A stretch of 64,000 nucleotides of DNA from a virus. Below the pieces are notes generated by a model. It was not told the origin of the DNA and ran no database searches. It saw nothing but the letters and a program-made list of their open reading frames with translations. Positions 1-47,827 of this stretch are shown piece after piece. The stretch's first letter is position 1, and every line of letters begins with the position of its first letter. The stretch is taken from positions 1 to 64,000 of the IMG/VR virus record IMGVR_UViG_3300028867_000005; one strand, given 5' to 3'. Both the position numbers and the translations under genes were made by a program.

Positions 1-411
1 GAAATACTCGGCATCGCCAACTGAACAGCACACAACGAGATCCGCCTCGCGGTAGGCTTTGCGCTCGCACCGGGCGGTGTACTCGGTCCAGGAATCGCTG
101 CAATAGTCCGGCTGGCGCCCCAGGCGCTCGAGCTGCACGCGTACTTCGATATGATGCGACGAGTACACCAACTTTGCCGCGTTGTTGTGCTGCTTGATCA
201 GCCACTGGGCAGTGTGTACTAGCCAGGGAAACTCAAACATGATGGCATCGAAGGGGTAATCGGTCGATTGCAGCACGTCGCCATTGTTCATCACCACGTC
301 ATGCACGTCATGGCCGGCGCGGCGCAGCTGGTCGCCAAGGTGGTAGCAGCGCTGCTGACCGCCGTTGGTGCGAGCCCCCATGCCAAAGGGGAGTAAGCGC
401 AGGATGTTCAT
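1..411 (-). CDS. Glycosyltransferase family 4 (GT-B) protein, N-terminal part; runs off the left edge
   Basis: Not in the ORF track. Manual translation from ATG at 411 (ATGA overlap with the upstream stop) gives MNILRLLPFGMGARTNGGQQRCYHLGDQLRRAGHDVH...ERKAYREADLVVCCSVGDAEYF, a typical GT4 N-terminal pattern. Confidence 0.7.
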   Translation of the reverse strand, partial: MNILRLLPFGMGARTNGGQQRCYHLGDQLRRAGHDVHDVVMNNGDVLQSTDYPFDAIMFEFPWLVHTAQWLIKQHNNAAKLVYSSHHIEVRVQLERLGRQPDYCSDSWTEYTARCERKAYREADLVVCCSVGDAEYF

Positions 412-614
412 TCGGCCTCAGCAGCTGATATCAGCAGGTTGTTGATTACGTCGGTATTGGTGGCGCCCCAGGCGGAGCCGCGCAGGCGCTCCAGGGCTGC
501 ACTTGCATTCGGGTGGACCCTGACATGCAGGGTGATGATGCCTACAGCACGCTGGCGCTGGCGACGTTCACGGTCACGCTCCGCGCGGGGCTTGTCGGAT
601 GCTTTACGGCCCAT
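408..614 (-). CDS. Small basic putative DNA-binding (ribbon-helix-helix-like) protein
   Basis: 68 aa, Arg-rich N-terminus followed by a strand-helix-helix pattern; translationally coupled to both neighbours. Confidence 0.5.
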   Translation of the reverse strand: MGRKASDKPRAERDRERRQRQRAVGIITLHVRVHPNASAALERLRGSAWGATNTDVINNLLISAAEAE

Positions 615-1731
615 TTATAAAGACTCCTTTTCCAGCTCGATCAAAAGCCGCTCGCCAATCCAGCGCATGACAGGTATAGCCATACTATTCCCGATTGCCT
701 TGTATCTGGCGGTATCTGGAACAATCGCTGGCTGCTGGCTGCTGGCTGCTGGCTGCTGGCTGCTGGTACATGGTCCAGTTATCAGGAAAACCCTGAATCC
801 TTTCCCCCTCGCGGGGTGTTATATAGCGCAGCCGACCATCCTGTATTACTGCCGGGAATCTGTTTTTTTCAGGAAGTGTCTGTTTTTTGAAAAGGACAGC
901 ATCCAGCGTTTGGCTTATTTGCCCTCCGTCCCACCAGCAAGAATCCATACTGCGCGGGTCTTCAGGCTGACTATATTCTTTGCCTCGAACCGGCGCCGTA
1001 TCCCTGCGAGAGCCCTCAAACTCAAAAATGACCCGGACTGGGCTGAAACCTTCTCGAGCACTGGCGATAACGAAGATACGGTTGCGCCGTTGTGGTACGC
1101 CGAAATGTTCGGCATTGAGCACCCTCCATGCGACTGCTCTTTGGGGTCCAAACACACAACCAGCGTCTGGCCAATTAGGAATGTGCTTGCTGGTGTCTTT
1201 GTTCCAGCGCCAGTATTTACTGGATTGGCCAGCAGCAGGCTGTGGCTCGGGTCCGAGCTCGGTGTCTTCTCCAGCAAGAGCTGCCAAAAAGCATCCGAAG
1301 GCATTATCTGTGCTGGTGAGGACGCCAGGGACGTTTTCCCAGCAGATGACACATTCTGGCTTTCCGTGTTTGCGCCGAACAGAGTCAATTGCATTCGCTA
1401 TCTCCACAAATGAAAGGGTAAGGCCGCCGCGGGCGTCACTAAGACCCTCCCGGAGCCCGCCAAGGCTGAATGCCTGGCAAGGCGTACCGCCAACAAGCAC
1501 AGGCGGGGCGGATATAGATTCGGCATGTATCATTGCCGAAAGCTTTGTCATGTCACCATGGTTTTTGGTGGCAGGAAAACGGTGCCTTAATATCCCAGCC
1601 GGGCCCGGCTCTATTTCAGCGAACCACGCTGCATGCCATCCCAACGGACCCCATGCCACACTGGCAGCTTCTATCCCGCTACATATACTGCCAAACTTGA
1701 TTTCTTCCACAGGATTCACCATATAACACAC
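615..1731 (-). CDS. DNA (cytosine-5) methyltransferase, frameshifted near the 3' end at a heptamer repeat (motif X out of frame)
   Basis: Motifs FGSICSGIEA (I), GGTPCQAFS (IV), WENVPG (VI), QRRNRIF (VIII) and TPREGERIQGFPD (IX). The ORF stops at 685, but the adjacent frame encodes IVPDTARYKAIGNSMAIPVMRWIGERL (motif X), ending at TAA 615-617 immediately before the next ATG. Confidence 0.9.
727..766. repeat. Simple sequence repeat (GCTGGCT)x5 plus GCTGG inside the C5 methyltransferase gene
   Basis: Perfect 7-nt tandem repeat read directly from the sequence. Confidence 0.97.
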
Positions 1732-1773
1732 CGTACATACAGTTATAGCACAAATAACGCACCGTACAGTGCG

Positions 1774-2337
1774 CTATTTGCCAGCCCACTGCTTAAAAAC
1801 GGTCGCTGCCTTGGCAAACTGCTCAGGAGTGAGCACGATGAATTCGCCGTCGGGCTTCTGGAATGCCACCTGCTGCACCCCGGTATAGACGATGCGCGGG
1901 GGCTGCCCGGTGGCGCCGGCCGTGGCGAACGGCTCCAGCGCCTCACGGAACTGGCGTACTGCCAGGGCAGCATCCCACAGCATCCCGGAATCCATACCAG
2001 GGTGGTTATTCTTTATGGCCGCGTGCACCAACTGGGCGATGATGGTCTGGTGCAGGCCGGACCCGGCGGCGCCGTCGGCGCGAACCATGATCTTGCCTTT
2101 GCCATTGCACTTGTTGCAGGTGGCCATCACCCCCATGCCTCCATGGTAGCGCTCACCTGCGCCATCGCAGCGGTTGCATGCCTTCTCTTCATAGACCGTG
2201 CCATCGTCTTTCAGGCTGGCCATGGACTTCAGGGTATTGCCGACCGTCTCCAGGTCACTGGCAATGGTGTGCAGGTGAGCCGCCCGGAGCTCGGCGGCGT
2301 GCTTCAGCAGGGTGTTTCCGGCTATTTCAAGGTCCAT
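1774..2337 (-). CDS. Hypothetical protein with DnaJ-type zinc finger
   Basis: CNRCDGAG...CNKCNGKG (CxxCxGxG twice). Confidence 0.6.
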   Translation of the reverse strand: MDLEIAGNTLLKHAAELRAAHLHTIASDLETVGNTLKSMASLKDDGTVYEEKACNRCDGAGERYHGGMGVMATCNKCNGKGKIMVRADGAAGSGLHQTIIAQLVHAAIKNNHPGMDSGMLWDAALAVRQFREALEPFATAGATGQPPRIVYTGVQQVAFQKPDGEFIVLTPEQFAKAATVFKQWAGK

Positions 2338-2524
2338 GGTTGCTATCCAAAAAGGTATGTACAGTCGTTTTATTCGTCAGCCGGGGCCCGGTGGCGGCTG
2401 GAGTAGAGCCGGTTGCGCCGGCAATGCTCGCAGCTGCCATTGTGCTGGCAGGCCGTGGAGTGGTACTGGTGCTGGCCATCACGGATGGTCTGGCTTGTTT
2501 TGCGCTTGCGGCGCAGTGTCCTGC

Positions 2525-2710
2525 TCATGGTGGTGGATCTCCTGTTGTCGGCAGCGCTTTGACGGCCAGCGCCAGCTGCACCTGGTCGCGCAGCCAGCGC
2601 GTGCCGCCCAGGGCGATGAAGGCCGCCCATTCGGCATCGGTGGCGCGGATACTGCGCTGGCGCCGGATTTCAGTGACCGGGGGCCGGCCGCGGTGGGGTT
2701 TATGTTCCAT
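2525..2710 (-). CDS. Small DNA-binding protein (AT-hook-like RGRP plus RHH-like region)
   Basis: MEHKPHRGRPPVTEIRRQRSIRATDAEWAAFIALGGTRWLR; overlaps the stop of the upstream gene. Confidence 0.45.
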   Translation of the reverse strand: MEHKPHRGRPPVTEIRRQRSIRATDAEWAAFIALGGTRWLRDQVQLALAVKALPTTGDPPP

Positions 2711-4055
2711 CGGGCAGATCCTCGTCGAAGGGAGCGCCCAACTCGGTGCCGGTGCGCAGGAAACTGTCCATGGCGAGGCGCTCGAGGTCATTCATGCCGC
2801 CCTGCATCAATTTGGCCTGCTCAATCGACAGAGCGGTTTTGGCTGATGGCTTCTTTTCATGGCCACCTTGCTGAAACCAGTCGGAGGGAAAGGGCGCGTT
2901 CCATTCCTCGTCGGCGGCGATGGTGCCGATACCAGATGCGGCTTCAATATCATCCACCATGGCAGCCTTCAGCCGACCGTACTCCATAACCGTATCACGA
3001 TCACCGGCCATGATGCTGCGAACCTGGTCAGCCGTGATTGGCTGCGCCGGCCGTGCAGCCTGCTGATTCCACTGCTCAGCGGTCAGTCCGCCGCAGGGCG
3101 CCTCGAGCGGAGCGCTGGTGCTGAGGTGACCCAACTCCTGCAAATCCTTGATGGTGAGCCCGTGGCGCGTGGCATCGAAAACCGAATCAAGTTCATGCGA
3201 TGGCACAGGGGCATGCTGGACGCTGAGACGCTTGGCGCGGCCACCGTACTCCTGCAATAAGACAGCATGTGACCTTGCCAGCCGACCGTACTCCCCCACT
3301 ATATCAAACTCACACGCCATGATATCGCGCACCTGCTCAGTCGTGAACGGCTGATCTAGTGGCGATGTATGCAAGAGGGCCTGCGTCAACAGCTTGCGCG
3401 CAATGCGGCTCCGCTCCGGGTCCGACCGATCGTCCTCGGCAATCATGGCCAGGGTGGCCTCGTCCAGCTCGATCAGGTCTTCTTCATGGTCCATGTGGAC
3501 CGGGGCCAACTGGCGGTTGGCGCTGTCATCATATGGCTTTCCGACAGGCCACTTCCAGTGATCAACATCACTCTGGAGGCTTGCAGCCAGAAACGGTTTA
3601 CCTGTCGAGAGGGAGTACCCCTTCACCACCTTTACCTCCAACTCGGGATTCTCGATCAGGTGACTGTTCATTTCGCGCAGGGCGGCATTCTCTTCGCGCA
3701 GCAGGCCGTTTTCGTGCAACAGGGTGTCGTACTTGAGCTCGGTCTGGTGGCGCTCCTGCTCCGCCCTGATGGCGCGCTCCAGCAGAGGATTCAGCAGGAG
3801 TTGGCGCCAGCGCGGGGCAATGTGGCTGATCGGCATACCCACGCAGGCGTTCCAGCAGGCCACCAGCCTCTCCGCCATATCAGCGTGCTCTGCCATCGCC
3901 AGGGTGCCCAGCCATGAATCAAACTCGTCGCCAATATCAGACGACTCCAGCACCAGCAGGTGGCGGACGGGAAAGGTGGTAGTGGCTTTGGCCAGGGTGT
4001 GGATTTTCAGGCGCTGATCGGTGGGTGGCGTTCCCAATGCGGTATTCTTTGTCAT
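2700..4055 (-). CDS. Phage hypothetical protein with coiled coil and an internally duplicated motif
   Basis: Long ORF; GGAGAG SD before ATG at 4055; T.EQVR.IMA...V.EYGRL occurs twice. Confidence 0.7.
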   Translation of the reverse strand: MTKNTALGTPPTDQRLKIHTLAKATTTFPVRHLLVLESSDIGDEFDSWLGTLAMAEHADMAERLVACWNACVGMPISHIAPRWRQLLLNPLLERAIRAEQERHQTELKYDTLLHENGLLREENAALREMNSHLIENPELEVKVVKGYSLSTGKPFLAASLQSDVDHWKWPVGKPYDDSANRQLAPVHMDHEEDLIELDEATLAMIAEDDRSDPERSRIARKLLTQALLHTSPLDQPFTTEQVRDIMACEFDIVGEYGRLARSHAVLLQEYGGRAKRLSVQHAPVPSHELDSVFDATRHGLTIKDLQELGHLSTSAPLEAPCGGLTAEQWNQQAARPAQPITADQVRSIMAGDRDTVMEYGRLKAAMVDDIEAASGIGTIAADEEWNAPFPSDWFQQGGHEKKPSAKTALSIEQAKLMQGGMNDLERLAMDSFLRTGTELGAPFDEDLPDGT

Positions 4056-4158
4056 GCTTTCTCTCCAGGCGCCCCATGCGCCAATCGGAGTTATTGTAAA
4101 CACATTAAATGCAATCGGCTATGGTATTTGCTCTTTTTTTAATATGCTTGCCGTATGG

Positions 4159-4347
4159 TCAGGGGATATCAATGGTGTCGTCGTTCAGTGCGGCATCTGC
4201 TAGCGCCTGACCAATCCCTTTTGCTGCATTGCCATTCCCGAGCTGTTTGGCTATCTCCCATTGATGATCGGACAAATACACACAGCGGGGCTTTCCTGCT
4301 CGCTCCCGGAGGGTGCGGCGGTCAATCTTTGGTGTGGCGTCTGGCAT
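4159..4347 (-). CDS. Small CopG/RHH-like regulator
   Basis: 62 aa; GGAGG SD; RCVYLSDHQWEIAKQLGNGNAAKGIGQAL pattern. Confidence 0.5.
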   Translation of the reverse strand: MPDATPKIDRRTLRERAGKPRCVYLSDHQWEIAKQLGNGNAAKGIGQALADAALNDDTIDIP

Positions 4348-7346: not shown

Positions 7347-7897
7347 AAAAGCGCAAACTGTGCCGGCCTGCGCCGGGCATGATCATATCCGTGCTTCGCC
7401 AAGAGGCGACAAACCGCAAGCTATGGGATGAGCTCCAGCGCTACCGCGCCAGCGACAAGGCAAACCGGGAGCTGGCATGCTACCTGCGCAGCAAGCTGTT
7501 TCACTTAGAGAGCCGGGTGGACCAGGCCCTCCATGTGTTTGGCCGCTTCAGCGCTCTGCAAGACCCTATTGACATGGCTCCGGTAGGCACCAAACCGCCT
7601 GAGCGCATACAAATCGGTGTACCTTTTGGCATTGAACAAAGGTTCACTTCCACGTCAGATCCGCTGCATGAGCCTGGCCTGACCGTTAAGGTCGAAATGC
7701 TGGAGCGGCTTTCGGTTAAATTTTTGCCGTCAAAAAATTGTTTAGGCAGAAACTTGCTCATGCGCTATGGCGAAGGGCAGGTATCTGCCTATTTCGATCA
7801 GGCCGCCTTCGACCTGAAACACCATGACGACATCGTGAAGGTCATCCTGCCCGATCTGCTGCGGCAGATGGTGGAAAAGCTGAGAGAGTACCGGTGA
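7343..7897 (+). CDS. Hypothetical protein
   Basis: ATG at 7343 overlaps the previous stop; its stop overlaps the next start. Confidence 0.6.
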   Translation: MKKRKLCRPAPGMIISVLRQEATNRKLWDELQRYRASDKANRELACYLRSKLFHLESRVDQALHVFGRFSALQDPIDMAPVGTKPPERIQIGVPFGIEQRFTSTSDPLHEPGLTVKVEMLERLSVKFLPSKNCLGRNLLMRYGEGQVSAYFDQAAFDLKHHDDIVKVILPDLLRQMVEKLREYR

Positions 7898-9060
7898 AAA
7901 TTACAACAGACACTGACAGCCAGTTTATCAGCGACCGCGCCACGCTGCTGCAGACCGATTGCCTGCTGGCGCTGCGCAACATGCCGGATAATCACGTCGA
8001 CAGCATCGTAGTGGACCCGCCCTACGGCCTGCGCTTCATGGGCCGCAAGTGGGATTACGCCGTCCCTGCGGTAGAGGTCTGGGCGGAGTGCCTGCGGGTA
8101 CTGAAGCCGGGCGGATACCTGTTGTGCTTCGCCGGCACGCGGACCCAGCACCGCATGACCTGCAACATCGAGGATGCTGGTTTCGAGATCCGCGACATGA
8201 TTGCCTGGGTATACGGGAGCGGCTTCCCGAAGTCCGTCAACCTGTCGGCCGCCTTGGGCGCCAAGGTGGACTATGCCGACCGCCAGCACCTGGAGGACTG
8301 GGGTACTGCGCTGAAGCCAGCCATGGAGCCGATTACCATGGCGCGCAAGCCCTTGATCGGGACCATTGCTGAAAACTGGATGGAGCATGGCACCGGCGCC
8401 CTGAATATCGGCGGATGCCGCATCGAAACCAATGGCGAGGCCCTGCGCGTGGGCGCCGAGGCTGGCCGCTGGCCGGCAAACCTGGTTCATGATGGCAGTG
8501 ACGAGGTGGTGGCGCACTTCCCGGACGAGGCTGGGCAGGCTGGGCAGTTGAATACTAGAAATTCAGATAAGCACCGCAATACCTATGGTGCTTTTGCTGG
8601 AGACGAAGACGCAAATTTCACTCCGCATGATGAGCGAGGTAATGCTGCACGCTTTTTCTACGCAGCCAAGGCCAGCGTGATGGACCGCGAGGAAGGGCTC
8701 GAGCTGTTCATGCGCCGGCCGCTGGCCTACGGTAATCAGGCCCAGGCGGAAGTGGCCCGCGGTAACATCGAGCACGCCGGCCTGTCGGGCATGAATACCG
8801 TGAAGATGCGCGCGAACATCCACCCCACTGTCAAGCCGACCAGTCTCATGCGCTGGCTGTGCCGGCTGGTAACGCCACCGGGCGGCCTGGTGCTGGACCC
8901 GTACGCAGGCAGCGGGAGTACCGGCAAAGCGGCCATGCTCGAGGGGTTTCGGTTCATCGGCATGGAATTGGAGAAAGAATACTTCCTGGTGGCTGTCGGT
9001 CGGGTGAAGTTCGGGTGGTATAACTGGCTGGCCGAGAATGCGCAGGGGAGTTTGTTTTGA
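7894..9060 (+). CDS. DNA N4-cytosine/N6-adenine methyltransferase (beta class)
   Basis: DPPY catalytic motif near the N-terminus; HPTVKP and LDPYAGSGSTG SAM-binding motif near the C-terminus. Confidence 0.92.
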   Translation: MKITTDTDSQFISDRATLLQTDCLLALRNMPDNHVDSIVVDPPYGLRFMGRKWDYAVPAVEVWAECLRVLKPGGYLLCFAGTRTQHRMTCNIEDAGFEIRDMIAWVYGSGFPKSVNLSAALGAKVDYADRQHLEDWGTALKPAMEPITMARKPLIGTIAENWMEHGTGALNIGGCRIETNGEALRVGAEAGRWPANLVHDGSDEVVAHFPDEAGQAGQLNTRNSDKHRNTYGAFAGDEDANFTPHDERGNAARFFYAAKASVMDREEGLELFMRRPLAYGNQAQAEVARGNIEHAGLSGMNTVKMRANIHPTVKPTSLMRWLCRLVTPPGGLVLDPYAGSGSTGKAAMLEGFRFIGMELEKEYFLVAVGRVKFGWYNWLAENAQGSLF

Positions 9061-15966: not shown

Positions 15967-16042
15967 GTCGGGGTGGAGCAGTTGGTAGCTCGTCTGGCTC
16001 ATAACCAGAAGGTCGCAGGTTCAAGTCCTGTCCCCGCCACCA
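15967..16042 (+). tRNA. tRNA-Met (CAT), initiator-like body with atypical determinants
   Basis: 76-nt cloverleaf: D stem GAGC/GCTC, anticodon arm TCTGG-CTCATAA-CCAGA, T arm GCAGG-TTCAAGT-CCTGT, encoded CCA. Confidence 0.93.
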
Positions 16043-17003: not shown

Positions 17004-17077
17004 GGAGTCAGTAGCTCAGCGGTAGAGTTTGGCATCTTCATTGCCAAGGTCACGGGTTCGAGTCCCGTCTGCTTCCT
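17004..17077 (+). tRNA. Degenerate tRNA / tRNA-like element (loop TCTTCAT; central triplet TTC, alternative register TCA)
   Basis: TAGCTCAGCGGTAGAG D arm, TGGCA/TGCCA anticodon stem, ACGGG-TTCGAGT-CCCGT T arm; imperfect acceptor stem, C at position 33, no CCA. Confidence 0.7.
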
Positions 17078-43614: not shown

Positions 43615-44171
43615 CCACCACCCTGAAGTCGATTGTTGGAAAGACGACGCTGGCGCCGGCCGATGGTGGGCCAAAGCTTGTGCTTCAGTCCGCAGTGTTC
43701 GGGCCTCGCGGCCTTCCTGGTGTCAGCATTACCAATGTGGTCGTACGCGATGACGAACACCTGATTGTTTCCCTGAGCAATGGCAATCAGATTGACGCAG
43801 GTGTCACCTACACAAACCCCATGCTGCCCAAGCAGCCGTGGAGCATCGGCCCCGATCTTCCCGGCGGCTACGTCAACGGCAACCGCTTTATTCCTGATGG
43901 CGATTTCGACTGGACGCAGCCCGATGCCACTGTGCAGCACGTTTATGCCGGCGACACCTGCGAGGTGCGCATTGATGGCGCCAATGTGTGGCTGGACGTA
44001 ACGTATCCGCCGGCCAGCGTGGATAAGCGCGTAGCCATTGAGGCCGCGCGTGCTGAAGCGGCTGAAGCCGCGCTTGCCGAACAATTAGCCACTGAGGCCG
44101 CGCGTGCTGAAGCGGCTGAAGCCGCGCTTGCCGAACAATCCATTATTAACGCATTGATTTTTGGAGGCTAA
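43611..44171 (+). CDS. Virion-associated protein with C-terminal coiled-coil repeat
   Basis: GPRGLPG segment; EAARAEAAEAALAEQ occurs twice. Confidence 0.6.
   Translation: MTTTLKSIVGKTTLAPADGGPKLVLQSAVFGPRGLPGVSITNVVVRDDEHLIVSLSNGNQIDAGVTYTNPMLPKQPWSIGPDLPGGYVNGNRFIPDGDFDWTQPDATVQHVYAGDTCEVRIDGANVWLDVTYPPASVDKRVAIEAARAEAAEAALAEQLATEAARAEAAEAALAEQSIINALIFGG
44032..44139 (+). repeat. 54-bp tandem duplication (two copies, one mismatch)
   Basis: tagcca(t/c)tgaggccgcgcgtgctgaagcggctgaagccgcgcttgccgaacaat twice. Confidence 0.9.
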
Positions 44172-44176
44172 TCCTG

Positions 44177-47100
44177 ATGAGCAAGACCATGTTGGGGACG
44201 TACCCTTTCAACGCATCTGCCAAGACTGTAGACCTGTCGAGCATCCCGGACTATACCTTTCAACAGTTGCGGCTCATCTACAACCTGACGGTACGGCTCC
44301 CCATTTACGTCAATACCAGCAGCACTTTCACGGGGTCGATGGATGGCGGCTCGCTGGTTTTCGACGCCAGCAATGCTGGAATGCAAAACACAGACGAACT
44401 GGAAATTATCTATGATGACCAGTCGGCACAGCCCGTATCTGTCACGAATCCCCCCGCTGACTATCCCTCGACCGAGACTGTTGCCGCAATTGCAGAGACG
44501 AACACCGCAATTGCCAATTTGCAGACAGTGCTCAGCGAATTTTCTGCTAATCTTGCTGAGGTCACGAAGAATGTTGCCGTCACGTTAAACGGGCGTGCAA
44601 CTACGGGTACTGGCGCCGTGGTATCAACTGACGGGAGTACGGTAACGTGGCCGCTTACCGGCGCATTGCTTAATGCGGTGCAGATGAGTAACACGCTCAT
44701 CACTCCTGACCAGGGGCCAGTATTCATTGCTGTGAGTTGGCCGGCTGGCACGGAGCCGGAGTATGGCGAGTTTCAGTCCGTTCTCGCAGGATTCGTCGCT
44801 GCATATTATGATCCTGATCAAGTTGTCTCTAACGGGCTGTCAGGAGGCGCGCTGCCTTTAGCTACCGCGCAGGGTACTGTTGCTATTAGCCTGCCCCATT
44901 CTGTTGAATTCAATAATGGGTCTGGTAGCACCTACGCAGCTGACTATGACTTCGGTCCCGAGTGGGTCGTATTCATCGGCTACAATCCTGTCAATGGTCA
45001 AGTATTTATCCGTTCAGTGAAAGGCAGCCACATCACGAATGCCGGGCCGTTTAATACTGGTCTAACGGGCCTGCCTGTGCAGGCGTTTATCGGCGTGAGC
45101 ATGTCCAGTTCGACGCCGGCCAATGCCGGGCTACAACTGCTGTCAAATGCCGGGCTTGCCGCTATTGCCGCATCATGGGGCGATTATTACTATGCGTGGC
45201 CAGGTTATACAAATGTAGCTGACCCTGACTTTCAGTTGCTGACCTATGACTATGAAACGCACGATGCGCTTGAGAGCATTGAAACAGCGCTGACAACAGC
45301 AGTATCAAAGCTTTCGACCATCGCCACTAATTTGCCCGCCAAAGGGAGCGCTAATTCGGCCGCATCAATGCCCGTCACTATCGCCACAGATGATGCGCAA
45401 TGGGGTACTGACGGCACCGGCATTACGCAGCCAACCGGCGGCAGTGGGGCACGTGGCTGGTGGAGTGGGATCTACTCACAGGCTCTGGCCATAGTCGCCA
45501 GCCTCGGCGGCGATGGGGCTGGCGAGTCTCCGGCGAACGGTACCGGCGTGCGCGGCTGGTTGCGATCCATTTATGATCGCTTGACGGCTGGCATCGGCCT
45601 CAATGCGGGCACCAATATTATCGGCAAGGTCGGCATTGACCAGACGACTCCGGGCACGACCAATGGCGTTGTCGTCAATAATTCCGCCCTGCCTGCCGGC
45701 GCAGCTACCGATACTTCCGTGCAGGCCATCACAACCAGCCTCGGCACAAAGGCGGACTCGGCTGCATCGACTGACACTGGTACATTCAGCCTGATAGCCC
45801 TCACAAAGCGGCTGCTGACAAAAATTCCCGTGCTTGGCGCAGCAGCCACAGCCAGCAGTATGCCGACTACAGTCGCTACTGACGATGCGCAATGGGGTAC
45901 TGACGGCACCGGCATTACGCAGCCTGCCGGCGGCAGTGGGGCACGTGGCTGGTGGAGTGGGATCTACTCACAGGCTCTGGCCATAGTCGCCAGCCTCGGC
46001 GGCGATGGGGCTGGCGAGTCTCCGGCGAACGGTACCGGCGTGCGCGGCTGGTTGCGATCCATTTATGATCGCTTGACGGCTGGCATCGGCCTCAATGCGG
46101 GCACCAATATTATCGGCAAGGTCGGCATTGACCAGACGACTCCGGGCACGACCAATGGCGTTGTCGTCAATAATTCCGCCCTGCCTGCCGGCGCAGCTAC
46201 CGATACTTCCGTGCAGGCCATCACAACCAGCCTCGGCACAAAGGCGGACTCGGCTGCATCGACTGACACTGGTACATTCAGCCTGATAGCCCTCACAAAG
46301 CGGCTGCTGACAAAAATTCCCGTGCTTGGCGCAGCAGCCACAGCCAGCAGTATGCCGACTACAGTCGCTACTGACGATGCGCAATGGGGTACTGACGGCA
46401 CCGGCATTACGCAGCCTGCCGGCGGCACCGGCATCCGGGGGTGGCTGAGCGGGATTTTTAACCTGCAAAACAGCACTGTCAGCGGCGGCCGAGTGCAGAC
46501 ACGCGCACTCACAGCGGCTACCGACACCGTGACTATTGTGGCTTCAGACACGACGCCCAGCACCCAGACCATTACAGCGGCCGATGCTGCAACAACATCC
46601 GCCACAGGACAGGGCAGCCAAATCATCTACACCGGCACACCGACAGCAAACAGCGTCGCGCAGTTCACGCTGGCTGGCCAGCAGACGGTCGGCCTTCAGC
46701 TTACAGGGGTCGTCGCAGGTAATCTGTACCAGGTCGAAGTCAGTATTGATGGCACCAACTGGTATCTACGCACGCTAACCCTAAGCGCCATAACCTGGGC
46801 CAACATTTCCGCGAATTGCCTGGGATCGGTCAATGTCGCCGGTATGAAATATCTGCGCGTCCGGTGCACGACGTATGTCAGCGGGACGGCAACCGTGGCA
46901 CTGACAGAAAGCCTGAATGAAAGCAATATTACGGTCAGCGCACCGGCAGACATCGTCTATCCGACAGCATCAATCACCGCTACCGGGTTTTATTTGTTTC
47001 CTGTTCCGCAGGGCTATCAGTCCGCGCAGTTTTCTATCTATGGCACTTTCTCTGCCACGATGACATTCGTCGGGACTGTAGATAGTGCTGGCGTCACTGC

Positions 47101-47827
47101 GTTTTCAGCGGGGGCCATCCTCACCAATGCGGTGTCCTCGACGGGGGGAACGAGCAGCACGACCGGCGCCGGCAACTTTGAGCTTGCTATTCCAGTTGGG
47201 TCGAAGTATGTCGGCGTGCTCGTTACTGCATACGCCTCTGGCACTGTCAGTCTCAGTGTTTCTTTGAGCACGAGAGCCGCTCGCGTGTATTCCACAGGCA
47301 GTTCTGTCAGCGTGACTTCCGCTACTGGCGGCATCCTCGGCCTGACAGGCACCGCCTCGGACGGCATGTCCATCAGCACGTCCGCCCTGAATGTTGCGCA
47401 GCAGATGAGCTACAACGGGTCGAATTATGACCGCCTGCGCAACAACACCAGCGGCACGATTACCGCGAGTGGTGCGATCACGTCGTCGGCCGGCTCAACC
47501 GCGCAGACCAATTACAATGCCAAGGGCGTCATTGTCACTCTGAACATCACCGCGTATTCCGGCACGTCGCCCACGATTACCCTGCAGTTGCAGACGCAAG
47601 ACGCGGCCGGCAACTGGGTCAACATCCCTGGCGCGGCTACCGCGACTATCTCAGCAGCCAATGGCAGCTACGTGCTGGTCCTTTATCCAGGCATCGCCGC
47701 CTATTCCACCTCGCCGGGGTGGGCTGTAAGCGGGGCCTTGCCGCGCAACTGGCGTGTGTACAGCACGATTGGAGGCAGCGGTTCTCCGTCGATAACCTGC
47801 TCGCTTGGTTACAACTACATTCTGTGA
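44177..47827 (+). CDS. Fibre/adhesin-like virion protein (1216 aa, Thr/Gly/Ala/Ser-rich)
   Basis: Beta-rich composition, internal 164-aa duplication, C-terminal jelly-roll-like modules. Confidence 0.65.
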   Translation: MSKTMLGTYPFNASAKTVDLSSIPDYTFQQLRLIYNLTVRLPIYVNTSSTFTGSMDGGSLVFDASNAGMQNTDELEIIYDDQSAQPVSVTNPPADYPSTETVAAIAETNTAIANLQTVLSEFSANLAEVTKNVAVTLNGRATTGTGAVVSTDGSTVTWPLTGALLNAVQMSNTLITPDQGPVFIAVSWPAGTEPEYGEFQSVLAGFVAAYYDPDQVVSNGLSGGALPLATAQGTVAISLPHSVEFNNGSGSTYAADYDFGPEWVVFIGYNPVNGQVFIRSVKGSHITNAGPFNTGLTGLPVQAFIGVSMSSSTPANAGLQLLSNAGLAAIAASWGDYYYAWPGYTNVADPDFQLLTYDYETHDALESIETALTTAVSKLSTIATNLPAKGSANSAASMPVTIATDDAQWGTDGTGITQPTGGSGARGWWSGIYSQALAIVASLGGDGAGESPANGTGVRGWLRSIYDRLTAGIGLNAGTNIIGKVGIDQTTPGTTNGVVVNNSALPAGAATDTSVQAITTSLGTKADSAASTDTGTFSLIALTKRLLTKIPVLGAAATASSMPTTVATDDAQWGTDGTGITQPAGGSGARGWWSGIYSQALAIVASLGGDGAGESPANGTGVRGWLRSIYDRLTAGIGLNAGTNIIGKVGIDQTTPGTTNGVVVNNSALPAGAATDTSVQAITTSLGTKADSAASTDTGTFSLIALTKRLLTKIPVLGAAATASSMPTTVATDDAQWGTDGTGITQPAGGTGIRGWLSGIFNLQNSTVSGGRVQTRALTAATDTVTIVASDTTPSTQTITAADAATTSATGQGSQIIYTGTPTANSVAQFTLAGQQTVGLQLTGVVAGNLYQVEVSIDGTNWYLRTLTLSAITWANISANCLGSVNVAGMKYLRVRCTTYVSGTATVALTESLNESNITVSAPADIVYPTASITATGFYLFPVPQGYQSAQFSIYGTFSATMTFVGTVDSAGVTAFSAGAILTNAVSSTGGTSSTTGAGNFELAIPVGSKYVGVLVTAYASGTVSLSVSLSTRAARVYSTGSSVSVTSATGGILGLTGTASDGMSISTSALNVAQQMSYNGSNYDRLRNNTSGTITASGAITSSAGSTAQTNYNAKGVIVTLNITAYSGTSPTITLQLQTQDAAGNWVNIPGAATATISAANGSYVLVLYPGIAAYSTSPGWAVSGALPRNWRVYSTIGGSGSPSITCSLGYNYIL
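45392..46427 (+). repeat. 492-bp near-perfect tandem duplication (about 2.1 copies) within the fibre gene
   Basis: Unit starts at 45392, 45884 and 46376; in frame (164 codons). Confidence 0.95.

Follow-up and report, generated by a model that had tools for sequence, protein, structure and literature searches.

The window analysed here, i.e., the whole stretch of 64,000 nucleotides (nt), is the first 64 kb of the 88,278-base virus record IMGVR_UViG_3300028867_000005, which is rated 97% complete and represents an uncultured tailed phage of about 86.5 kb from peat metagenomes. On its minus strand lies a C5 DNA methyltransferase gene in an out-of-frame state (685..1731). A heptanucleotide repeat (727..766) sets the reading frame of the gene's 3' end, such that an open C-terminal tail of 36 codons (615..725, +1 frame) is found one base out of frame with the open reading frame (ORF) of the gene. 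From comparing sequences, we regard it as rather probable that the repeat truly is hypermutable and turns a phage methyltransferase ON and OFF.

The ORF extends from GTG 1731 or ATG 1722 to the TAG at 685-687, i.e., it comprises 348 codons from the GTG and 345 from the ATG, the start of the database protein P0122. It matches PF00145 (E 2.6e-31; 109.7 bits against a cut-off of 22) as well as TIGR00675 (cut-off 100.65), the latter scoring 103.1 bits with the window ORF, compared with 119.7 bits when an allele with four repeat units is used. Judged by these profile matches, the gene is a member of the C5 cytosine DNA methyltransferase family, as the initial annotation had proposed, and its copy with n=5 (n being the number of full repeat units) is predicted to encode an incomplete enzyme. 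The catalytic motifs of the N-terminal part are all within the n=5 ORF, as are the target-recognition region and the TPRE...QGFPD segment. GGTPCQAFS, WENVPG and QRRNR are present in its translation, which we take to be the large domain's catalytic Pro-Cys, ENV and QxRxR motifs, and positions C82, E129, N130, V131, R213 and R215 are invariant or nearly so in an alignment of 125 sequences. The earlier claim that all motifs other than the C-terminal one are intact thus holds.

On the coding strand, the tract consists of five full CCAGCAG units followed by CCAGC; AGCCAGC, of which five perfect units had been annotated, is the same repeat read in another phase. Tandem Repeats Finder reports a period of 7 with 5.7 copies and 100% matches for 727-766, which agrees with the direct reading and with that annotation. 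When unit lengths of 4, 5, 7, 8 and 10 were scanned over the 88,278-base record, this was the sole tract of at least three units besides a (CGCA)3. The chance of observing 33 self-matching positions at lag 7 is about 2.6e-15 given the size and composition of the record, i.e., the tract is far beyond chance expectation. It also passes the threshold used in a survey of phase variation (at least three units, length not divisible by 3; PMC7383803; here and below, statements on cited works refer to the accessible parts of these sources).

In the n=5 frame, 13 codons follow the tract before the TAG at 685-687, in line with the annotated stop of the n=5 protein at 685. The 36-residue tail contains RYKAIGNSM, and its stop codon (TAA 615-617) abuts the ATG of the next gene (612-614). 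When nothing but the number of units was altered by script, the tail came into frame at n=1, 4, 7 and 10, while n=0, 2, 3, 5, 6, 8 and 9 left it out of frame. This confirms the earlier statement that counts of 1, 4 or 7 read into a tail ending directly against the next ATG. That is, the C-terminal GNS/A-V motif is one base out of frame in the n=5 allele of the window, which had accordingly been described as lacking the conserved C-terminal part, while the motif is within the same polypeptide in the database proteins P0123 (n=4) and P0125 (n=1).

When the protein is aligned to M.HhaI with phmmer, the residues encoded by the repeat are located in a gap between the segments aligned to TPREGERIQGFPD and YKAIGNS. 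We take these to be motifs IX and X in the numbering of the M.HhaI literature, between which the initial annotation had also placed the tract. After the tract, nine columns of the 125-sequence alignment are nearly invariant (D334, R337, Y338, K339, G342, N343, S344, G354 and R356; n=4 numbering). The natural n=4 allele was modelled with AlphaFold2 (predicted local distance difference test, pLDDT, 84; predicted template modelling score, pTM, 0.85), and in this model two helices follow the tract (334-342 and 347-363). The tract-coded residues lie in model block 321-330 with a mean pLDDT of 72, compared with 92 and 88 in the flanking blocks. The top Foldseek matches of the model are M.HhaI chains (E 4.9e-16; template modelling scores, TM, of 0.57/0.64), i.e., the n=4 allele is modelled with an M.HhaI-like two-domain fold.

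Counted from the G of QGF to the R of RYK, the linker that holds the tract spans 18 amino acids (aa) for n=1 and 25 aa for n=4. The same linker has 14-129 aa in the homologues (110 of 119 with both anchor residues), with a median of 21. Given the gap relative to M.HhaI, the low-pLDDT block and linker lengths within the range of the homologues, an in-frame tract should be tolerated by the enzyme. The n=5 product would lose a conserved part of the catalytic domain, and we infer that it is inactive since the nine nearly invariant positions are lost with it.

Natural alleles of the tract

The homologue search covered 5.8 billion protein clusters (a 15-billion-protein collection). It revealed a single near-identical cluster (90% identity, five members), whose representative P0002 is 98% identical to the query; no other near-identical cluster was found among the 5.8 billion, and the next match is 59% identical. 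The window's n=5 form is P0122 (345 aa), seen on 41 contigs from JGI/IMG and ENA with a longest of 88,278 bases. P0123 (366 aa) has n=4 and is found on 12 ENA contigs (longest 87,341 bases), while P0002 (366 aa; one ENA contig of 13,323 bases) combines n=4 with one Trp-to-Leu change. P0125 (359 aa) has n=1 and stems from a single ENA contig of 86,170 bases. Finally, P0124 (313 aa; one JGI/IMG contig of 3,350 bases) shows the n=5 frame and a deletion of 32 residues, which removes the TPRE...QGFPD region directly before the tract.

Translating the window gene with 1, 4 and 5 units yields exactly P0125, P0123 and P0122, respectively. Thus, in this protein-level comparison, three unit counts (1, 4 and 5) occur without any other amino-acid change over 300-plus residues. 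The out-of-frame tail of the window allele is fully open and identical to that of the ON alleles. OFF-frame records make up 42 of the 56 contig records of the cluster, where contig counts are not equal to event counts. Length variation across relatives, a check that the initial annotation had set, is therefore found, i.e., in-frame n=1 and n=4 forms exist beside the out-of-frame n=5 form of an otherwise identical protein. As far as deposited sequences tell, ON/OFF-capable length differences between otherwise near-identical forms exist in nature.

Three further screens for relatives were negative. Window 400-2400 has no megablast match in a phage collection or in Escherichia coli genomes, scanning viral contigs with the protein as guide did not confirm any relative, and the exact 29-nt pattern expected in any allele with n of at least 1 was found in 0 stretches of the viral, metagenome and genome contigs; near-identical records possibly lie outside each of these collections, such that these results say little.

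Phage record and neighbouring genes

All 24 listed sequencing runs hold at least 0.93 of the sampled record words, based on run content represented by k=31 contigs, and all are labelled peat metagenome (2019-2020). They correspond to 24 coded studies, which may be one sampling campaign; 16 are flagged as possible source. No RNA data set is among the listed holders, which says nothing either way on expression. Among the gene products of the record are a large terminase, a portal, proteins of the baseplate and tail fibres, a RecE-like exonuclease, a helicase, a primase and a single-stranded DNA-binding protein (SSB). Directly after the large terminase gene, a tRNA-Met (CAT; 15967-16042) and a tRNA-Glu (TTC; 17004-17077) are found. 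Tandem Repeats Finder also reports a 492-base unit in 2.1 copies (45381-46427, 99% identity) and a 54-base unit in two copies (44032-44139, 98% identity), both in or beside a 1,216-codon ORF (44177-47827) of the tail/fibre region.

The two ends of the record resemble each other. Window positions 1-707 match record positions 86,550-87,256 at 91.7%, and the last 1,728 bases of the record form a diverged version (about 92%, then 77%) of its first 1.7 kb. A metagenome contig of 2,322 bases (L012) is identical to these last 1,728 bases and continues past them into a 77%-identical counterpart of window 1284-1952. Judged by this continuity, the last 1.7 kb of the record come from a diverged, co-occurring strain. 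The true genome size, as estimated from the overlap, is about 86.55 kb, which fits the 86,170- and 87,341-base contigs of the other alleles. The genome is probably circularly permuted or terminally redundant, though the record is labelled 'linear'.

The far end also carries a C5 methyltransferase gene (L004 1501-2613, minus strand), which is intact, has no repeat and contains a much larger, unrelated target-recognition region. The full-length protein of this strain, P0246, has 488 aa and is found on 11 contigs, all of 4,116 bases or less. We rejected the idea of a paralogue or second copy, since the continuity of L012 places the far-end gene at the same locus of the diverged strain. The two versions share the N-terminal domain and the C-terminal coding part, the similarity of the latter reaching to within 20 bases of the tract, while their recognition regions differ. 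From the sequences, this looks like a recognition-domain swap between co-occurring phage strains at the methyltransferase locus.

Downstream of the methyltransferase, the gene whose ATG abuts the in-frame stop encodes a 68-aa arginine-rich protein (408..614, minus strand). It has its own AAGGAG (624-629), 9 bases upstream of its ATG. The protein matches phrog_5439 (unknown function) with E 2.1e-5 and has no match in Pfam, NCBIfam or PADLOC. It is followed by the start of a GT4-type glycosyltransferase gene (1..411, minus strand), i.e., a 137-aa open-ended ORF that is cut at the first base of the window; its full-length counterpart at the other end of the record (354 aa; L006 9896-10960, minus strand) matches PF13579 and PF13439. 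The same-strand block thus reads methyltransferase, 68-aa gene, glycosyltransferase. Upstream of the methyltransferase, a 187-aa protein (1774-2337, minus strand) shows a DnaJ-type CxxCxGxG zinc-finger, with weak Pfam and NCBIfam matches below the cut-offs. A second DNA methyltransferase, of N6/N4 type, is encoded on the plus strand at 7894-9060 (PF01555 with E 6.3e-30; phrog_67), such that the phage carries at least two DNA methylases.

We looked for a restriction partner among the neighbours (408-614, 1774-2337, 2370-2630, 2700-4103 and the glycosyltransferase), two of which are uncharacterised, and found no PADLOC match and no Pfam or NCBIfam nuclease, where an unrecognised nuclease is possible. 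Because these neighbours lack a nuclease or defence-system match, the methyltransferase looks like an orphan, i.e., an enzyme outside a type II restriction-modification system.

Two further roles of the gene block were considered and rejected. A hypermodification cassette combines a C5 methyltransferase with a TET/JBP dioxygenase and a glycosyltransferase. An operon of this kind, leading from 5-methylcytosine via 5-hydroxymethylcytosine to a glycosylated base, was rejected since the TET/JBP dioxygenase profile PF12851 has no match at E of at most 0.1 in the whole record. A polar effect of the frameshift on the downstream genes also has no basis, given the 68-aa gene's own AAGGAG and promoter- and terminator-like sites at background level (in 1-4300, 3 versus 1.7 +/- 1.5 and 5 versus 3.8 +/- 2.1, respectively).

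With regard to lifestyle, 0 of 5 lysogeny families (tyrosine integrase PF00589, serine recombinase PF00239, rve PF00665, S24 PF00717 and ParB PF02195) were matched in the 97%-complete record, while the same five profiles matched in 7 to 14 of 14 control genomes. The phage is probably virulent, with the caveat that missing lysogeny matches are no proof of lifestyle. The initial annotation had also read the locus as a phasevarion that changes host methylation during lysogeny. As there is no support for lysogeny, there is none for this part of the interpretation, while its switch-like architecture and the natural ON and OFF alleles stand.

Candidate switch and rival explanations

Taken together, the locus is probably a slippage-driven ON/OFF switch on an orphan phage methylase, with a probable link to restriction evasion. 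Slipped-strand mispairing during phage DNA replication would add or remove 7-nt units, and each single-unit step would shift the frame because 7 is not divisible by 3. For n=1, 4 or 7, the ribosome would read into the C-terminal helices (RYKAIGNS...) of the catalytic domain, which binds S-adenosylmethionine, and an in-frame count would thereby yield the full, presumably active enzyme of 359 or 366 aa (ON). For n=5, the product would lack these helices and is expected to be inactive (OFF). Such switching would presumably be frequent and reversible.

The pay-off might be bet-hedging of phage DNA methylation. Phage methyltransferases shield phage DNA from host restriction, and methylated DNA is in turn a target of type IV enzymes. 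The ON state would protect against host restriction enzymes that cut unmethylated sites, while the OFF state would spare the phage type IV restriction, which depends on methylation, or the cost of methylating its DNA. Because methylation protects against one type and exposes to the other, mixed progeny would hedge between restriction types. By analogy to the agt gene of phage T2 (see below), hedging between classical and modification-dependent restriction is plausible. A wider scenario remains tentative, and we would sooner doubt than accept it as a whole: a virulent environmental phage bet-hedges its own methylation, with genomes in the ON (n=1, n=4) and OFF (n=5) states co-circulating across peat samples as hosts with classical or methylation-dependent restriction rise and fall, and co-occurring strains swap the recognition region. 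Little supports the bolder notion of a methyl-dependent glycosylation of DNA, carried out by the GT4 enzyme encoded downstream and gated by the same switch.

Several observations weigh against a switch. The tract lies near the 3' end of the gene, while such switches are usually found at the 5' end. Its switching rate may be low, since five units are short next to classical contingency loci (e.g., 3-53 units in neuO). Unit counts of 2, 3 and 6 are absent among the 56 contig records of the cluster, and as few as two mutational events would account for all observed lengths. The 41 n=5 contigs may represent one lineage repeatedly sampled in one peat campaign, and some of them may be one assembly deposited in two archives. 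The n=4 forms come from ENA only, and the 33 nt of n=4 are the length to which a de Bruijn graph with k of about 31-33 would, in principle, collapse a 40-nt tract; the n=1 form is not explicable by such a collapse. Finally, P0124 may stem from an OFF lineage that has decayed further, or from a faulty assembly.

The strongest rival is an incidental indel hotspot, i.e., a chance repeat in a dispensable gene whose n=5 state is a fixed frameshift, such that an early pseudogene rather than a selected switch is observed. We consider this unlikely, though far from negligible. It would explain why a single OFF length is seen and why this length dominates (42/56 contig records), and it sits well with the further-deleted OFF variant P0124, with the short and 3'-proximal tract and with the presence of a second DNA methyltransferase (PF01555, 7894-9060). 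That a co-occurring strain harbours another, intact C5 allele at this locus also implies that genes of this class turn over. On the other hand, three tract lengths with zero other amino-acid changes imply that the tract mutates far more rapidly than the gene's remainder, and the 36 out-of-frame codons show no decay. Furthermore, a perfect period-7 coding repeat is not expected from protein-level selection or chance, and in-frame forms persist on genome-length contigs.

An assembly artefact, i.e., a true tract that is in frame with n=5 being an error, or n=4 being a small-k collapse, is improbable. It draws on the metagenomic origin of an assembly whose last 1.7 kb stem from a different strain, on the restriction of the n=4 forms to ENA and on our own reasoning that 33 nt is the shortest path of a 40-nt tract in a graph with k of about 31-33. 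Ordinary reads, like the large k that metagenome assemblers currently use, exceed the 40 nt of the tract. The artefact is further opposed by the n=5 form being present on 41 contigs from two archives, by the 12-nt tract of n=1, which is not a k-mer collapse and is located on an 86,170-base contig, and by P0002, in which n=4 occurs on a slightly different protein background.

Even less credible is a still functional n=5 gene, whose truncated protein keeps a role (e.g., DNA binding) or is completed by ribosomal or polymerase frameshifting on the repeat: the truncated product retains the N-terminal motifs and the whole target-recognition region and the downstream frame is intact, but the loss affects nine nearly invariant positions as well as two catalytic-domain helices, the first start codon in the restoring frame comes only after the GNS motif, a direct reading of the tract finds neither a homopolymer nor a slippery site following the X XXY YYZ rule for frameshifting, and no split form is seen among the listed relatives of 191-609 aa, a range below which split forms were not searched for.

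Significance and comparison with known systems

According to a 2025 review, the spread of phase-variation loci over phage phylogenies is still to be mapped (PMC11868660). Phage contingency loci have only recently been demonstrated, namely for short homopolymer runs in cultured coliphages (10.1101/2025.10.21.683753). The locus described here is a concrete environmental case, i.e., one gene that is ON and OFF on genome-length peat contigs. It is distinguished by a 7-nt unit in place of a homopolymer, a C5 methyltransferase on a phage that is uncultured and apparently virulent, a tract that is 3'-proximal and has only 1-5 units, and evidence from natural alleles instead of bench work. If our reading is true, repeat-switched methylation extends from bacterial pathogens to free-living phages. 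The wider scenario given above would, if it holds, be the first view of a phage contingency locus in a natural population as well as the first case with a multi-base unit on a phage methyltransferase. The tract is long enough for amplicon genotyping; if reads confirm mixed lengths, it offers a means to follow the arms race between phage and restriction in situ, while, if reads disagree, the locus is an ordinary frameshifted accessory gene.

Bacterial phasevarions rely on phase-variable mod, hsdM and hsdS genes of type III and type I systems, which concern N6-adenine enzymes, and are defined by the regulon they control (PMC7383803; PMC11868660). The survey in PMC7383803 treats a constant repeat number among homologues as a sign against phase variation; the unit count observed here varies among homologues, i.e., shows the opposite. 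The locus thus resembles mod, hsdM and hsdS in combining a methyltransferase gene with an intragenic repeat unit that is not divisible by 3 and whose number differs between homologues. It differs in that the enzyme is an orphan C5 methyltransferase on a phage, for which no restriction partner or sign of lysogeny was found. Closer in enzyme class is hpyAVIBM of Helicobacter pylori, a phase-variable C5 methyltransferase gene in which an intragenic dinucleotide repeat shifts the frame. Both loci thus couple a C5 enzyme to a frame-shifting repeat, while hpyAVIBM has a dinucleotide unit and is located on a bacterial chromosome.

Campylobacter phages (Fletchervirus) carry polyG tracts in genes of receptor-binding proteins (Sorensen et al. 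2021, via PMC11868660 and 10.1101/2025.10.21.683753). They share with our locus a repeat-mediated ON/OFF variation in the genome of a virulent phage, with mixed progeny on the Fletchervirus side. There, a homopolymer acts on host recognition, while here DNA modification would be affected. In the accessible part of the literature, we found no description of a phage-encoded phase-variable methyltransferase, where this coverage is partial and supplementary lists of genes with simple sequence repeats (SSRs) may hold some; polyG tracts in the methylase gene of one phage are mentioned in passing (10.1101/2025.10.21.683753).

The neuO gene of prophage CUS-3 in E. coli K1 holds a heptanucleotide coding repeat of 3-53 units, of which 20 is the commonest count; it is out of frame in 42 of 64 genomes, and its switching was measured by fragment analysis (PMC13001214). 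In both cases, a phage-borne gene contains a heptanucleotide coding repeat for which one unit count in three is in frame, and the OFF state is common (42/64 genomes for neuO, 42/56 contig records here). In contrast, neuO encodes a capsule O-acetyltransferase on a prophage and has a long 5' tract, while the gene studied here is DNA-modifying, its 3'-proximal tract has 1-5 units, and the search for lysogeny genes was negative.

In terms of function, the alpha-glucosyltransferase gene agt of phage T2 is an experimental precedent (Gomez, Barrick and Waters, bioRxiv 10.1101/2025.10.21.683753). There, slippage in an adenine run causes reversible frameshifts, with a reversion rate that exceeds a point mutant's about 1000-fold. 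Of two type IV restriction systems, one favours the ON form and the other the OFF form; the switching lets the phage alternate between TgvAB and McrA/BC hosts, and the T-even SSRs considered in that work are 'SSRs >=6 bases' of cultured coliphages. While T2 agt features a homopolymer with measured reversion in a cultured coliphage, the present locus has a 7-nt unit in a C5 methyltransferase gene of an uncultured phage and is known from sequence. Common to both is a simple coding repeat in a DNA-modification gene of a phage, for which we propose the same hedging logic.

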